Numbered from the stretch's first letter, positions 21,501 to 27,500 are shown. The stretch: DNA of 29,307 bases from Candidatus Zixiibacteriota bacterium (GCA_029932605.1 JAOZPT010000030.1:1-29307), one strand, 5' to 3'. A program made the numbers.

Positions 21501-24500
21501 GTTTAATAAAATTGGTCAATTTGTCTATTGAAAGTTCTTTACTTTTTCTGTTAAGGCAACTGTTACAATTCAAGTAAACTATTCCCAACGAATCTTGCAT
21601 TGAGTCTTTATCGCCATTAAAGATTCAAGATGCTTGACTATGTAAAGATAGTAGCATCTGCTCAAATTCCATGTCTCCTCATGGTTAAATGTTCATTACA
21701 TTCTTATTCCAGGTTTTGGAGATGAAATGGATTAAAGGAGGTTATTTTAATGAGGTAAACGTGAACATAACGACCTTGATAAAGTATACAATGCATAAAA
21801 GCTATAGATTTTTAATGACTCTAGTTAAAAGCCTAAGAGAAGAAAAAAGCTAACATTTTTAAGACCAGTTTTTATTTAGAAGTTAGATAATACTTCCCTA
21901 CATAAAGAGTAAACTCGAAACCATGATCTTTCCTTGACAATACAATTTGGTTAAATTATTCTGATTTAAATATAGGTATGTAAGTCTGTGTGACACCTTT
22001 AAGGAGAAAGCCATGAATGATTACGAATTTAAGAAATACGATTTTGAGAGACCCTCCACCTTGTATATTCTTGAAGATATTCTTATGAACATGTTTGGAG
22101 AATCAGTCTTTTACGGTTCGTTTATTAAAACTTTCGGATTAAAGGGAAATGAGAGAGTGCTGGAATTTGGATGTGGTAGCGGAATCGGTTCTCGATGTGT
22201 TGCAAAGAAACTTAGCACAGGCGGATTCCTAACAGGCGTAGATACTTCTGGATATTGGACCAGAAAGGCGAAGAAAAGACTAAGAAAATATAAAAATGTG
22301 GAGATATTAACAGGTGATATAAGAGAATTAGATATACCTGATTTGACTTATGACATTGTATTCGTCACTTATGTTATCCATGATATTGAACCCGAATTAA
22401 GACAGGGTATAATAGATTCCCTCTCCCGAAAATTGAAATATAACGGTTTATTCTTTATTCGAGAACCCATAAAAAAATCTCACGGTATGCCTGCTACGGA
22501 AATACAATCATTGTTATCGAATGCTGGCCTAACAGAGTCAGAGTGTAAAACGACCAAATCAGAATACCGGGGGAAATACTCGAAACACGCACAATAAAAT
22601 TACAGTCAGCAGGTCGGATTCCAAATGAAATACATAAACAGACAAATAACTCCCACTAGAGTTTGTTTAAGACCCCCGTCTATAGAATTAGAAAAAAGAG
22701 TTGAATAATTCGCTAATATGGAGTAGCTTCGCCTATGATTTTATACTGGTAAGTTGTTTTGAGAGAAATTGGGTGTTTAGAGATAAGTAGAATGGTGATT
22801 ACTGTATATCTGATTAGAATTAGTAAACGCCCCTATTTTAAGTTAAGTAGTATAAGGACTTATAAATCCGTGGGAGAATAGATGGGACAGAACTTAATTG
22901 AAAAGATTGCCCAGCTTTTTGCGGTTGGCCTTGAAGATGGCCATATTGTTCGTAGCGGTGATTATCTTTCTATAAAACCAGCTTATGTCATGACTCATGA
23001 CAATACCGGTGCTATTATTCCCAAGTTTAAGGGCATTGGCGCCGTTGAAATAGCCAATCCGCGGCAGGCTGTTTTTACTTTAGACCATAATGTTCAGGAT
23101 AAAAGCGAGAGCAACCTTAAGAAATATGCGAAGATTGAGGAATTTGCTAAAACTATGGGTGTGGATTTTTACCCTGCAGGTCGGGGTATAGGGCATCAGA
23201 TAATGTGTGAGGAGGGTTATGTCTGGCCGGGAACGATGGTTGTAGCATCTGACAGTCATGCCAACATGTATGGAGGTCTGGGTTGCCTGGGAACTCCCAT
23301 CGTTAGAACCGATGCGGCCTCAATCTGGGCTACCGGTATAACCTGGTGGCAGGTTCCACCAGTGGCGAAAGTAAAACTTGAAGGAAAACTTAAGCACGGA
23401 GTAACTGGCAAGGATGTCATTATCACATTGTGCGGCTTTTTCAATCAGGATGAGGTTTTAAATCATGCTATAGAGTTCATCGGTGATGGTATTTCATCTT
23501 TATCTATTGACCAGCGTTTGACAATTTCCAACATGACCACCGAATGGGGTGCTTTAGCGGGTGTTTTTCCGATAGACCAGATCACAATCGATTGGTTGAG
23601 AGAAAGAGCAGATTTTGTAGCCCGACGCGGTTTAGCAGGTGTTCCCTCGGATGCAGACGGCAACGGTAAACATCCACGCCTTAACTTTAATAGAATAGAA
23701 GAGCTCAAAATTAATTCTCTCAAGCCAGACACTGATGCCTTTTATAGTAAGGAGATTATGCTGGATTTAAATACTGTTCGCCCTTGTGTAAGTGGTCCTG
23801 ATCATGTGAAGACTATAACCTCCGTTTCAGAGATACGCAAACGTGATATTAAAATTCACAAGGCTTATCTTGTATCGTGTGTTAACAGCCGGGTTGAGGA
23901 TTTAGCCCAGGCGGCAAGTGTGGTAAAAAATAAAAAAGTGGCAGAGGGTGTTGAATTTTATGTAGCTGCTGCCTCAAGCGAGGTTCAGGCCGAAAGCGAA
24001 AAACGTGGTGACTGGCAGACGCTTCTGGATGCCGGAGCAATACCACTTCCAGCGGGATGTGGTCCATGTATAGGGCTTGGCAGGGGTTTGTTAAAGGATG
24101 GTGAGGTCGGTATATCAGCCACCAACCGCAACTTTAAAGGGCGTATGGGTTCTCGTAAAGCTGAAGCTTATCTGGCTTCTCCGGCTGTTGTTGCTGCCTC
24201 GGCCATTGCGGGTAAAATAGACTATCCTGAGGTGGAAGAGCCCGTCGAGATAATAGGCGATGTTATATCCAGAGAAAAGCCAGCAGGTGAAATCAAGGAG
24301 ATAAAAATACTCGATGGTTTTCCTGAAACCCTCACCGGAGAATTGGTTTTCTGTTACCAGGATAATCTCAATACCGATGGCATTTATCCTGGTAAATACA
24401 CCTATATTGATGATTTCACTCCAAAACAGCAGGCCGAAGTGGTAATGGAGAATTACGACCCTGAATTTTCTAAGATCGTCAAAGGTGGTGACTTTTTAGT

Positions 24501-27500
24501 AGGAGGAATAAATTTTGGCACCGGAAGTTCTCGTGAGCAGGCTGCCACGGCCTTGAAATATAAAGGTATTAAGCTGGTTCTTGCCGGCTCGTTTTCCGAA
24601 ACTTATAAGCGTAATGCCCTGAATAACGGTTTTCTGGTAATTGAGACACCTGAGCTTGTTAAGGATTTAAAGGCTAAATTCGGAACGGATAAGTTAACAG
24701 TTAAAACCGGCATCATGGCCACGATAGATTTCAAGAACTCCAGGTTAATAGCAGGTGATAAAGAGTATTCAATAAGCCCTGTCGGAACCGCTGCCCAGGA
24801 GTTGATTATAGTTGGCGGGCTGGAGAATTGGGTGAAGAGGAAGTTGAATATATATTCTCAATGAGTAAGTAAGATTAGGGAAAAGAGATAAATTAGATGG
24901 AAAAAACCATGGAAAAATCAATTTCAAGGCAGATTTCTGAATTTGCAGTAAAATTAAAATACGAGGATTTACCAGAAAATGTTATAAACGAAGTGAAGCG
25001 TTTTCTTTACGACTCTATAGGTTGCGCCTATGGGGGTTACCATACCAAGGATGTAAATATCCTTCGGGAGATTTATAAAGAGATGGGCGGTAAAAAAGAG
25101 GCAAGCTTAATCGGTTTTGGCGATAAGATGCCAGCAGTAAATGCTACGCTGGTCAATTCTCTTATGATACGGGCATTGGATTTTAACGATATCTACTGGA
25201 AAGAAGATCCCTCACATCCATCGGATTTGATACCGGCGGCACTGGCGGTTGGCGAGATGGTCGATGCCTCCATGAAAGATGTAATAGTGGCTATTGTATT
25301 AGCTTATGAGTTCGAACAGCGTTTGTGTGAATTTGCCGTTCCCGGGGTGCGTGAACGCAAATGGCACCATGCCACGCTGACCCAGTTTGTCTCTCCTATT
25401 GTCGCTGGAAAACTTCTGGGACTTGATGTTGATCGTATGGTTAACGCCATCGGAATTAATGGCTCGCATAATCATACGATAGGCTGTCCCACCGCTGGCC
25501 AGTTGACAATGATGAAAAATACTGTTGACCCGATGGCGGTGCAATCAGGTGTATTTGCGGCTTTGATGGCACAGAAAGGTTTTAGCGGAACCGAGCAGGT
25601 TTTTGAAGGCAAAGAGGGCTTGATGGATGTTTTCGGGCCAGAGTGGGCTATTGAGAAACTGACAGGTGGTCTGGGAAAAGATTATAAAATCCTTCGATGC
25701 AGTATGAAAGCTTTCCCGACCGAGGCGCTCACTCATACTCATATAACGGCTACGTTGAAGGCGGTTAAAAACAACAATATCACTTATGACCAAATTGAGC
25801 AGGTTACAATCACCACCATTGCCCGCGCCTGCGATATACTTTTTGACCCTCAAAAATACAGGCCGAAATCGCGGGAGACAGCCGATCACTCATTGCCATA
25901 CTGTATCGCCGTAGCTTTAGTTGACCATCAGATTACCCCCCGGTCTTTTTCCGAGGAGAAATTAAAAGATAAACGTATCTGGGAGGTAATTGATAAGATA
26001 AAGGGCTCAGCCTCCGAGGAGTTTGAAAAGATGTTCCCCGCCAAACAGCCATCCAGGGTAGTGGTCAAGACCAAGGACGGCAGGGAATTCTCGGAATACC
26101 TTGAGTATCCCAAGGGTGACCCGCGGGAACCGATGACATCAGAAGACCTGGAGGTCAAATTTAATTCGCTTTCCGATGGTCTTCTATCATCGGAAAAACA
26201 GAAAAGGATCAGAGAGAAGATATTTACCTGTGAGAATACAACTGCCAGAGATTTTATGGAAAGTTTAGTTGTGTAGAGATAACATTCTATTTGAGAAAGT
26301 TGTTACAAATACTTTTCTTGATGAAAAAGTTAGTTGTTTTTAACGGACGCTTCGTAGCCAATCTTTTTCACAGATTCTATCAGCTTTTCGGTTTCAACAT
26401 CGCCATCGACGACCGCGGTGTTTTCCTCCAGATTAACATTGACTGAATTTACTCCCGTGACATTTTTTAGAGCATTAGTTACATTCGTGGCACAGTGCTG
26501 GCAGGTCATGCCTATTATATTTAACTTTATCCCCATATCCTTTTTCAAGCTGGGTTTTTTCTGGTACTTTTTCTTTAAGTCATGTATCGATAAGTACATG
26601 AAAAGCCCGATTAAAACTATCCCGCTTACAAGCGAAAGCCATCCGTTCTCCGGATTGTGATGAATTATCATTGCCTGCTTGGTATTGATTACGGAATTAA
26701 AGAGTATCCCGAAGAGCATGCTGAAGATAGCTACTGTTGTTAAGTATATAGCCAAGATTCTACCGCCAAAAGCTCTGAGTATTGCCCCAACGGTAGCAAT
26801 ATTTGAGGCAGGTCCGACCATTAGGAAAACCAGGGCTGCTCCTGCGGGCATTCCCGCTGCGATTAAAGAAGCAGCTATCGGCACCGATGCAGTAGCACAA
26901 ACATACAAGGGTAAGGCGATTAGAAGCATAAGGAACATACCACCAACACCGGTTATCCAACCAATATCTGATAGTGTGCCGGGAGGAATTATTATGGTTA
27001 TCAAAGCGGCAATGGCTATACCCAGGATTATCCAGCCGTAAATCATCCCAAGAAGTTCAAAAAGACCAAAACGAATAGCCTCTATTATTTTTGATTTATA
27101 ACTTCGTTTATTGTCGATGCCAGTATTTTGGGTATATTTATAAGTTTGTTTTTTATCGAATATATCGACAAGCTTTCCGCCAATGATGCCTGTCACAGAG
27201 GCGGCGGCCAACTTAAATATGGCAAACGGCCAGCCCAGAAAAGATGCGCTTACCAAAATCGAGTCAACACCTGTCTGGGGTGTGCTTATCAAAAAGCTCG
27301 TTGAGGCTCCATTGGAGGCGCCATCCTGTTTAAGGCCGATGGCAGTGGGAACAACGCCACATGAGCACAAAGGCATGGGAACGCCAATCAAGGTAGCCTT
27401 GATTATGCTTGCTAGACCGTGTCCACCTAAATTTCTGTGCACGAAGCCCATTGGTAGAATTACATGGATAATCCCGGCTATGGCGATACCCAGAAGAAGT

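Follow-up and report, generated by a model that had tools for sequence, protein, structure and literature searches.

The lysF gene and the MmgE/PrpD-family gene beside it belong to a set of six genes that are real and co-inherited among the Zixibacteria. We rate the chances as about even that this set forms a homocitrate route without a synthase, which would normally run toward cleavage and convert 2-oxoadipate and CO2 to 2-oxoglutarate and acetyl-CoA. The homocitrate chemistry itself is probable and, given this chemistry, cleavage is the likely direction.

The gene set and its distribution

The window, the whole stretch of DNA that was analysed, comprises 29,307 nucleotides of the source genome G000, which is 99.96% complete. 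The survey's finding had placed a lysF-prpD pair in it and the partner genes at four distant loci. Both genes of the pair were confirmed where they had been reported (Table 1), on the same strand with a spacing of 32 bp, and the partners were verified by profiles. At the locus on C78, a D-2-hydroxyacid dehydrogenase gene and an asparaginase-II-family gene are interspersed among those for SucC2, SucD2 and the HD protein. The genome was also said to lack homocitrate synthase and to have its own TCA enzymes. The profile search with PF00682 gave no match in G000, and a separate cluster (sucCD, mdh, HacAB-type aconitase and NADP-icd) as well as a citrate synthase gene were present.

Table 1. Positions and profile matches of the six-gene set in G000
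Feature	Position	Strand	Location	Length	Profile result
lysF, single-chain fungal-type homoaconitase (aconitase family)	22882-24864	+	window	660 aa	TIGR00139, 885 bits (cut-off 529.9)
MmgE/PrpD-family gene	24897-26276	+	window	459 aa	Pfam PF03972 and PF19305
Dehydrogenase	C8:25204-26322		outside window		best NCBIfam AksF2, 358 bits, below cut-off (540)
Citryl-CoA lyase (CCL)	C55:13079-13846		outside window		PRK06224 passed, 311 bits (cut-off 212)
SucC2, SucD2 and HD protein	C78:7280-11968		outside window		SucC2 just below cut-off, SucD2 above

Co-occurrence was counted in 151 genomes of the phylum, which were evenly drawn and not picked by their lysF status; related genomes are non-independent data points in these counts. 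All six genes (LysF, the PrpD-family protein, the dehydrogenase, CCL, the second SucCD and HD) were present in 83 genomes and none in 15. LysF orthologues with 55-80% identity were found in 101 genomes, fragments counted, and these genomes also contained the dehydrogenase (98), CCL (99), PrpD (93) and HD (91). The co-inheritance claimed for the module held on the larger sample, but its description as one module needs amending: 16 genomes retain a core without LysF and PrpD, 11 have PrpD without LysF, and in 15 PrpD and HD are swapped for another cassette. The stable core is the dehydrogenase, the lyase, the ligase and HD, whereas LysF and PrpD are replaceable. In the 16 core genomes (families f12, f13, f16 and f17) CCL, HD and the dehydrogenase were present and SucC2 in 15, while LysF and PrpD were missing at the cut-offs used. 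No PF03972 match was obtained in five PrpD-less genomes of this type that were examined. PrpF was considered for the missing step and was not found in any of the four PrpD-less genomes examined, nor in G000.

The enzymes and the predicted route

Re-scoring against the homoaconitase equivalog upheld LysF as a member, and [4Fe-4S]-type Cys motifs were found in its sequence and in the orthologues. It is predicted to interconvert (2R,3S)-homoisocitrate and cis-homoaconitate. Fungal homoaconitases catalyse only the reaction between homoaconitate and homoisocitrate, according to PMC3556520, and a second enzyme is therefore needed.

The candidate for this step is the PrpD-family protein, whose gene is present at 47 of the 78 lysF loci. 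It has both MmgE_PrpD domains and scored far under the PrpD equivalog cut-offs (best 99 versus 950 bits). Membership of 2-methylcitrate dehydratase PrpD failed with TIGR02330 (65 versus 458 bits) and PRK09425 (90 versus 575 bits), and by sequence the protein can be placed only in the broader MmgE/PrpD superfamily. Its identity to all solved family members (IRG1, IDS epimerase and PrpD) is just 20-23%, with methylcitrate dehydratase no nearer than the other two, and a model of the protein did not separate the activities of the family, which takes in isomerases and decarboxylases (PMC12290011). We predict a syn-hydratase that interconverts cis-homoaconitate and (S)-homocitrate. The orthologues begin about 4 codons downstream of the start given in Table 1.

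The dehydrogenase was below the cut-offs of both homoisocitrate dehydrogenase (HICDH)-type families, AksF2, its best NCBIfam as previously reported, and LEU3_arch (317 versus 410 bits). For residues 1-125 the three best structure matches were all HICDHs, and the segment YSSPIV is common to the protein and the Schizosaccharomyces pombe HICDH 3ty3. As the survey had noted, the Asn of the isocitrate motif is missing: S-x-N precedes the first conserved Arg in solved ICDHs and in the icd genes that lie at the same loci, whereas SPIV stands in 59 of 61 orthologues of the dehydrogenase. The sequence HGSAPKY was found in all 56 readable orthologues, and we take its K-Y to be the NADP-specific coenzyme motif. 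In the full-length search NAD-ICDHs matched as well as HICDHs. One genome, G118, bears on the substrate. It has a lysW-hcs-lysX-lysY-lysZ-lysJ operon without hac and hicdh. Apart from icd, the module dehydrogenase is the only Iso_dh gene in this genome, and the aconitase family is represented by an AcnA-sized gene, LysF and the TCA-cluster member. The module dehydrogenase is thus the sole non-icd candidate to serve the acquired operon, which points to homoisocitrate itself as the substrate.

The placement of CCL in the citryl-CoA lyase family also stood. The motifs DHG, HGGA and GxGH are intact in 43-44 of 44 orthologues, and the closest solved relative is the true citryl-CoA lyase 6hxp (E 2e-70). 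The HD protein had no match in the PDB sequence search, its Atlas clusters are labelled "HD domain" only, and the best fold match was YhaM (TM 0.68). Its most probable role, proposed with low confidence, is that of a metal-dependent hydrolase removing a by-product of the Si-type cleavage chemistry.

In the proposed route, the NADP-type HICDH-like dehydrogenase would reductively carboxylate 2-oxoadipate to homoisocitrate, which LysF would dehydrate to cis-homoaconitate. Syn addition of water by the PrpD-family protein would give (S)-homocitrate, the enantiomer opposite to the one that homocitrate synthase makes. SucCD2 would then form homocitryl-CoA with ATP, and the CCL homologue would split it to acetyl-CoA and 2-oxoglutarate. 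Such a route would remove 2-oxoadipate without glutaryl-CoA dehydrogenase and without oxygen. Gene content, linkage, motifs and replacements were observed directly, whereas all substrates, the stereochemistry, the coenzyme and the direction are inferred. Our searches found no literature on the reductive carboxylation of 2-oxoadipate to homoisocitrate and no published account joining homoaconitase, PrpD and homocitrate, in a search that covered mainly openly available papers. On homocitrate cleavage, homocitryl compounds and (S)-homocitrate, the matches concerned only nitrogenase and a cysteine-modification database, and no mention of citryl-CoA lyase was found in PMC3903129.

Three versions of the proposed cleavage step

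The cleavage step exists in three non-homologous versions that are exchanged among related genomes. These activate-then-cleave kits are mutually unrelated and share the same dehydrogenase family, and a hydrolytic synthase is in none of them. SucCD and CCL, the first version, are encoded in a single operon in 10 f7/f15 genomes. The second, in Ignavibacteria, consists of CitF and CitD-E (CitDEF), with both genes at 20 of the 78 loci and all six genes, in a CitDEF-type operon with lysF and prpD, at 17. Its CitD domain has an Arg at the position of Ser14 of Enterococcus durans CitD, presumably the attachment site, in five of five aligned sequences. The third is a family-III CoA-transferase and an HMG-CoA-lyase-like (HMGL) lyase together with HacAB, a cassette found in 15 genomes.

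All 15 genomes that kept the dehydrogenase and were without PrpD and HD carry the HMGL cassette, and PrpD was not found in any of the 15 relying on it. PrpD accompanies CitDE or CitF at 22 of 23 loci. In 13 of the 15 cassette genomes the loss of PrpD and HD extends to SucC2, which links this protein to the cleavage step. LysF and/or CCL are still present in 10 of the 15, so the exchange is incomplete. Lyases of the CitE and HMGL families use substrates of opposite hand (PMC6689899). The pairing of PrpD with Si-type lyases suggests (S)-homocitrate, and the three versions would predict opposite homocitrate enantiomers. The 16 core genomes without LysF and PrpD break the rule that a Si-lyase needs PrpD, unless a divergent HacA adjoining HD does the step. 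The aconitase-family domain tree, in which long branches meet, was used to delimit groups only and not for history.

Several known systems resemble the set in part. The upper alpha-aminoadipate pathway of fungi and Thermus (homocitrate synthase, aconitase with Lys4/LysF, and Lys12 HICDH) likewise has a TIGR00139 LysF, a YSSPIV dehydrogenase and an isomerisation divided between two enzymes. Here, however, a PrpD-family protein stands in aconitase's place, a CoA ligase and a lyase replace the synthase, and the coenzyme motif is K-Y instead of D-I. The two markers of alpha-aminoadipate lysine biosynthesis that were checked, PF00682 and LysX (TIGR02144), gave no match in G000, and LysX was found in only one of the 151 genomes. 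The citryl-CoA synthetase and lyase of the Aquificota reverse TCA cycle, and ATP-citrate lyase, also combine a SucCD-like ligase with a stand-alone citrate-synthase-family lyase, and 6hxp is the best structure match, but our set is tied to homoaconitase, PrpD-family, HICDH-like and HD proteins, and its ligase and lyase are exchangeable for CitDEF or the CoA-transferase/HMGL-like pair. With the 2-methylcitrate cycle (PrpC, PrpD, AcnB, PrpB) it shares a Si-type C-C enzyme together with two separate partners, a dehydratase of the PrpD family and a hydratase of the aconitase family; it differs in having a beta-decarboxylating dehydrogenase, not a lyase, at the isocitrate-like step and a PrpD homologue only about 20% identical to true PrpD. 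The Ignavibacteria/Marinimicrobia version resembles CitDEF citrate lyase (EC 4.1.3.6) in its CitF and CitE families, with a CitD-like domain fused to CitE, but has the Arg in CitD and shares its operon with lysF, prpD, the dehydrogenase and HD.

Direction, source of 2-oxoadipate and meaning

The survey had linked the module to lysine breakdown. For G000 this is plausible: by homology it encodes an LKR-like/saccharopine dehydrogenase pair, a PH1688-like dehydrogenase, a class I aminotransferase and a P6C dehydrogenase above cut-off, which would complete the gene set from lysine to 2-oxoadipate. Scavenged lysine or diaminopimelate is the most likely source of 2-oxoadipate there. As a general role it did not hold. 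P6C dehydrogenase (NF050084) occurs in only 10 of the 151 genomes, and AOR, considered as a general P6C oxidase, in only 12 and not in G000, so most module-bearing genomes are without an identified route from lysine to aminoadipate. A LysDH-like (lysine-6-dehydrogenase-like) gene is present in 117 genomes, including 14 of the 15 without the module. Lysine 2,3-aminomutase was below cut-off in G000 and was not found in four other genomes. A close relative of GCDH-like proteins was not found in G000. A search of the 78 loci for lysine-catabolic neighbours, with seven G000 proteins as queries, yielded only a single aminotransferase fragment and three acyl-CoA dehydrogenases, so the gene neighbourhood gives little support for lysine.

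The same homocitrate chemistry could run forwards, with the lyase condensing acetyl-CoA and 2-oxoglutarate, SucCD2 recovering the thioester energy as ATP, and 2-oxoadipate or aminoadipate being made for lysine or another product. Every step is reversible in principle, and the oxidising enzyme required for catabolism was mostly not found. DapA-family genes occur in five and LysX in one of the 151 genomes, which leaves the phylum without known lysine synthesis, and the LysDH-like enzyme and a class III aminotransferase encoded immediately upstream of sucC2 in f12/f13/f16 could aminate the semialdehyde. We regard this direction as unlikely. It requires a further reduction step, and no enzyme that activates or reduces aminoadipate was identified (Lys2-type reductases lay outside the search). 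DapA and LysX are also absent from the 15 module-less genomes, so lysine auxotrophy is tolerated. CoA-transferase and lyase pairs are typically catabolic. G118 retained its acquired homocitrate synthase alongside the module, three of five lysF-bearing genomes of other phyla have DapA-family genes (one strong, E 4e-92), and Ignavibacterium album is described in PMC3362086 as unable to make lysine.

Under plain citrate chemistry, citrate would be the substrate cleaved by SucCD2 and CCL (or CitDEF), the dehydrogenase would work as an isocitrate dehydrogenase in the reductive direction, and LysF and PrpD would be side additions; the outcome would be part of a reverse TCA cycle or a supply of acetyl-CoA. 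The cut-off passed by CCL, its relative 6hxp, the NAD-ICDHs level with HICDHs and the 16 genomes whose core is without LysF or PrpD fit this explanation, and the I. album CitDEF has been read as citrate chemistry in PMC3362086. It is nevertheless quite improbable: aconitase, icd and citrate synthase are already encoded separately in G000, the dehydrogenase is without S-x-N, and citrate needs neither PrpD nor homoaconitase, yet both share the operon with CitDEF at 17 of 78 loci; the HMGL-like enzyme of the replacing cassette and the Arg in CitD also argue against it. Rather unlikely, too, is a related chain-shortening route, with 2-oxoadipate made from glutaryl-CoA by ferredoxin-dependent carboxylation, with a longer or branched 2-oxoacid, or with SucCD2 as glutarate-CoA ligase. 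The lysine link is absent from most genomes, and at two of the 78 loci (L058 and L061) the gene 3' of prpD, below the NCBIfam cut-off, is one that we take from its motifs to be glutaryl-CoA-dehydrogenase-like. AksF2 is named for methanogen HICDHs, which also act on longer homologues. However, the methylcitrate cycle does not fit because 2-methylisocitrate is a tertiary alcohol that this dehydrogenase family cannot oxidise, SucC2 is lost with PrpD and HD, and the G118 case indicates homoisocitrate itself. The homocitrate/2-oxoadipate chemistry put forward by the survey is favoured by the HICDH motif match, the G118 operon without hac and hicdh, and the fact that the cleavage step has twice been replaced by non-homologous enzymes.

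More tentatively, and somewhat short of an even chance as a whole, many sediment and subsurface bacteria may run an undescribed CO2-consuming, O2-independent route from 2-oxoadipate to acetyl-CoA and 2-oxoglutarate that arose three times out of unrelated components. Two of the builds would run via (S)-homocitrate, and the third would run via (R)-homocitrate, using a homocitryl-CoA lyase that resembles HMG-CoA lyase. To reach (S)-homocitrate, which is not known from any pathway, the two builds would rely either on a novel activity of the MmgE/PrpD family or, in four families of Zixibacteria, on a divergent member of the aconitase family with unusual stereochemistry. The ccl/ccs-like and citDEF genes of such bacteria would then have been misread as markers of the reverse TCA cycle or citrate fermentation. 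If true, this would be a new central catabolic route with up to four new activities: a ligase that couples homocitrate to CoA, a dehydratase for (S)-homocitrate, and a homocitryl-CoA lyase for each enantiomer. The frequent occurrence of "fungal-type" homoaconitase in bacteria without known lysine synthesis would be explained, and citryl-CoA lyase and citrate lyase labels could no longer be safely taken as signs of carbon fixation in Zixibacteria, Ignavibacteria, Calditrichota and Marinimicrobia.

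Module genes and their distribution

In profile searches, lysF and prpD were found where the survey had placed them, and so were the distant loci for the dehydrogenase, the citryl-CoA lyase (CCL), SucC2/SucD2 and the HD protein (see the table). LysF scored 885 bits against the TIGR00139 cut-off of 529.9 and CCL 311 against 212, whereas the dehydrogenase stayed below the cut-off of its top family AksF2 (358 versus 540). The PrpD-family protein was far under every PrpD cut-off, yet both Pfam MmgE_PrpD domains were present. The absence of a homocitrate synthase was borne out, as the synthase family PF00682 had no match in the source genome G000 (99.96% complete). 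The genome's own icd and citrate synthase were also recovered: contig C28 carries a separate TCA cluster with canonical SucC, malate dehydrogenase, HacAB-type aconitase and an NADP-icd that passes its cut-off, and the genome also encodes a Si-citrate synthase. The module therefore fills no gap in the TCA cycle.

Features of G000 with their positions and basis of assignment
Feature	Position	Strand	Basis
lysF, aconitase family, 660 aa	window 22882-24864	+	TIGR00139 homoaconitase equivalog
MmgE/PrpD-family gene, 459 aa	window 24897-26276	+	both Pfam domains; 32 bp past lysF
SO_0444-family Cu/Zn efflux transporter, C-terminal CopZ-like domain	window 26330-29171	-	over cut-off
Histidine ammonia-lyase	window 26330-29171	-	over cut-off
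Dehydrogenase	C8:25204-26322		profile search
CCL	C55:13079-13846		profile search
SucC2/SucD2, HD protein	C78:7280-11968		profile search
LKR-like/saccharopine dehydrogenase pair	C84		homology
PH1688-like dehydrogenase	C36		homology
P6C dehydrogenase	C28		over cut-off
Class I aminotransferase	C51		homology
lysA, heading a peptidoglycan-recycling-type operon	C19:305-6517 (L253)		over TIGR01048 cut-off

A D-2-hydroxyacid dehydrogenase gene lies between sucC2 and sucD2 (C78:8570-11454, locus L003), likewise in genomes G088, G061 and G092, and an asparaginase-II-family gene immediately precedes the HD gene in many Zixibacteria, including G000 at this locus. In the window, two genes at 19060-21308 are, from sequence motifs, presumably a CARF-domain CRISPR accessory protein and Cas6; the transporter and histidine ammonia-lyase genes are unrelated to the module.

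For co-occurrence, 151 evenly drawn genomes of the phylum were each searched with every G000 module protein. The LysF count takes in matches of at least 55% identity, including contig-end fragments and one short stop-containing piece (G084), and a PrpD match in G125 (29% identical) was excluded as non-orthologous. The full set of six was found in 83 genomes, and 15 had none of them; such counts are descriptive only, since related genomes are not independent. Eleven of the 83 (families f7 and f15) have a longer, divergent SucC beyond the reach of the SucC2 search, which was seen within the cluster in ten; in G115 sucD is at the contig end. In these families sucC-sucD-ccl-HD-lysF forms a single run, often adjoined by the dehydrogenase gene. 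PrpD occurred without LysF in 11 further genomes, and the f8 genomes checked carry another HacA.

Versions of the predicted cleavage step and the proposed role of PrpD

Judged from gene content, the predicted cleavage step exists in three versions: SucCD2 with CCL, as in G000; CitDEF; and an HMG-CoA-lyase (HMGL)-like/CoA-transferase cassette. Among 78 GTDB loci around lysF, drawn from the top 80 of 745 stretches, recurrent same-strand neighbours were PrpD (47), HD (44), the dehydrogenase (27), a CitD-CitE fusion (22) and CitF (21); all six genes were together in 17 of these loci, and PrpD was present in 22 of the 23 with a CitDE or CitF gene. In alignments the CitD domain had Arg (5/5) at the position of Enterococcus CitD Ser14, which, with the role that we assume for this serine, suggests free CoA esters. 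The same CitDEF genes were taken as a citrate lyase, possibly of a reverse TCA cycle, in a section of the I. album genome paper (PMC3362086).

The cassette was found in all 15 of the sampled genomes that keep the dehydrogenase and miss both PrpD and HD. It consists of an HMG-CoA-lyase-like gene, a family III CoA-transferase, then HacA and HacB, is 59-83% identical between genomes, is truncated by contig ends in two and adjoins a dehydrogenase gene in G030, G120 and G135. Thirteen of the 15 yielded no SucC2, and the copies in G044 and G136 were just 53-55% identical; LysF and/or CCL is still present in ten. The cassette additionally occurs in three full-module genomes (G002, G009, G108). Its genes were absent around the seven other short HMGL matches examined, all but the one in G045.

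According to excerpts of PMC3556520, fungal homoaconitases only interconvert homoaconitate and homoisocitrate, M. jannaschii HacAB catalyses both steps, on (R)-homocitrate, and PrpD is needed for methylcitrate because aconitases cannot perform the syn elimination. In excerpts of PMC6689899, CitE cleaves (3S)-citryl-CoA, one CitE-family enzyme uses (S)-citramalyl-CoA and (R)-HMG-CoA, and HMG-CoA lyases use (S)-HMG-CoA. From our CIP mapping of handedness, the Si-type lyases CCL and CitE would use (S)-homocitryl-CoA and depend on a syn-(de)hydratase. If the alpha-carboxylate sits at the metal-binding position, the HMGL-family lyase would act on the (R) form, for which HacAB would suffice.

Gene content agrees with this rule in all three versions, with one exception: in 16 genomes (families f12, f13, f16, f17) CCL, HD and the dehydrogenase occur in the absence of both LysF and PrpD, and here the rule is unproven. 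PF03972 was found in none of five checked and PrpF in none of four. In 14 of the 16, a distinct and conserved type of HacA (78-93% identity to that of G088) is encoded at most about 6 kb from HD or directly beside ccl; the loci of the other two stop at contig edges. Active-site motifs are altered in this HacA, which sits on a long branch, and the three PrpD-bearing genomes with fully listed aconitases yielded no copy of it. An intact HTH-HacA also occurs in the three exception genomes inspected, adjoined by a HacB gene in the two of f12. In the G000 orthologue (C53:44575-46176, L281), which has an N-terminal HTH-like extension, the DSH motif has been lost and no small-subunit gene is adjacent; this protein is possibly a pseudo-enzyme or regulator. 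HTH-HacA is intact in LysF-less f12 and f16 genomes. It looks as if an older HacAB pair was displaced by LysF and PrpD.

The HD protein goes with each of the two Si-type versions, and all 15 cassette-only genomes lack it; its function is therefore probably linked to Si-type chemistry and not to the ATP-dependent ligase. Its predicted HD fold is confident (pLDDT 88), with YhaM as the best structural match (TM 0.68), and His57, Asp95, His120, His144 and Asp164 are invariant.

Probable substrate and direction, and the possible lysine link

Residues 1-125 of the dehydrogenase best matched the homoisocitrate dehydrogenases (HICDH) of S. pombe and Thermus, and its YSSPIV is identical in 3ty3 (S. pombe HICDH); over the full length, NAD-ICDHs scored equally well. 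SPIV occurred in 59 of 61 orthologues, with S-x-N instead in same-locus icd genes and solved ICDHs. The coenzyme motif was HGSAPKY in 56/56 readable orthologues, which we take to be NADP-type.

G118, from the family of G000, has a lysW-hcs-lysX-lysY-(amidotransferase-like)-lysZ-lysJ operon (L292:6667-12497) in which no hac or hicdh genes were found. Apart from icd, the module dehydrogenase is the sole Iso_dh gene of G118, and the aconitase family there comprises an AcnA-sized member, LysF and a member in the TCA cluster. Should the operon be functional, the homoaconitate and homoisocitrate steps would most likely be supplied, in this one genome, by LysF and the dehydrogenase of the module. No lysK lies within the operon; its 211-aa class II amidotransferase-like gene (PF13230) may stand in for the LysW-lysine hydrolase. 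A separate cluster in L283, L289, L290 and L415 (G065, G069, G078, G036) combines a 410-480 aa PF00682 synthase-like gene with HacA and HacB and adjoins thiolase- and acyl-CoA-dehydrogenase-like genes; in three of the four it also includes a dehydrogenase only about 35% identical to that of the module. It would be a different chain-elongation route, found with or without the module.

On these sequence comparisons, homocitrate chemistry is the probable reading of the module. Given that chemistry, we favour cleavage with reasonable confidence. Each of the three kits works by activation and cleavage, without hydrolysis of the thioester; the HGSAPKY motif, the lack of a known lower biosynthetic pathway (LysX in only 1/151 genomes) and the synthase acquired and retained in G118 also count for cleavage. 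A module run for biosynthesis is kept alive as the less probable direction: the scarcity of DapA-family genes, found in just 5/151 genomes, speaks for it, but module-less genomes are likewise without them. That scarcity and the lysA operon suggest phylum-wide scavenging of diaminopimelate or lysine. By sequence, the other genes of that operon resemble those for alanine racemase, NlpC/P60, LD-carboxypeptidase and dipeptide epimerase. Such scavenging is described for Fidelibacter in part of PMC11652737.

Under cleavage, the lysine breakdown proposed by the survey holds as likely for G000, where, by homology, the LKR-like pair, the PH1688-like and P6C dehydrogenases and the aminotransferase point to lysine as the 2-oxoadipate source, and is less certain for the phylum: P6C dehydrogenase in only 10/151 genomes and AOR in only 12/151 argue against a general link. 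We take the PH1688-like protein to be lysine 6-dehydrogenase and the aminotransferase to be LysN-like. Also against a general link, a LysDH-like gene was present in 117/151 genomes, including 14/15 without the module and, at the cut-off used, 0/16 without PrpD. The three acyl-CoA dehydrogenases of G000 are at most 33% identical to glutaryl-CoA-dehydrogenase (GCDH)-like proteins. A gene that we take, from sequence motifs, to be GCDH-like lies directly or one gene past prpD in two loci (L058:11209-12384, L061:14604-15773). In G114 a class I aminotransferase gene runs divergently from that of the module dehydrogenase (L284:15025-17573), and in G069 the LysDH-like gene is 4 kb from lysF (L408:4685-16973); these are isolated links to lysine metabolism.

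Every part of the module belongs to a known family, and no description of a homocitrate cleavage route was found in the literature searched. We conclude that the module is real and that its predicted route would amount to 2-oxoacid chain elongation that proceeds by way of a lyase.
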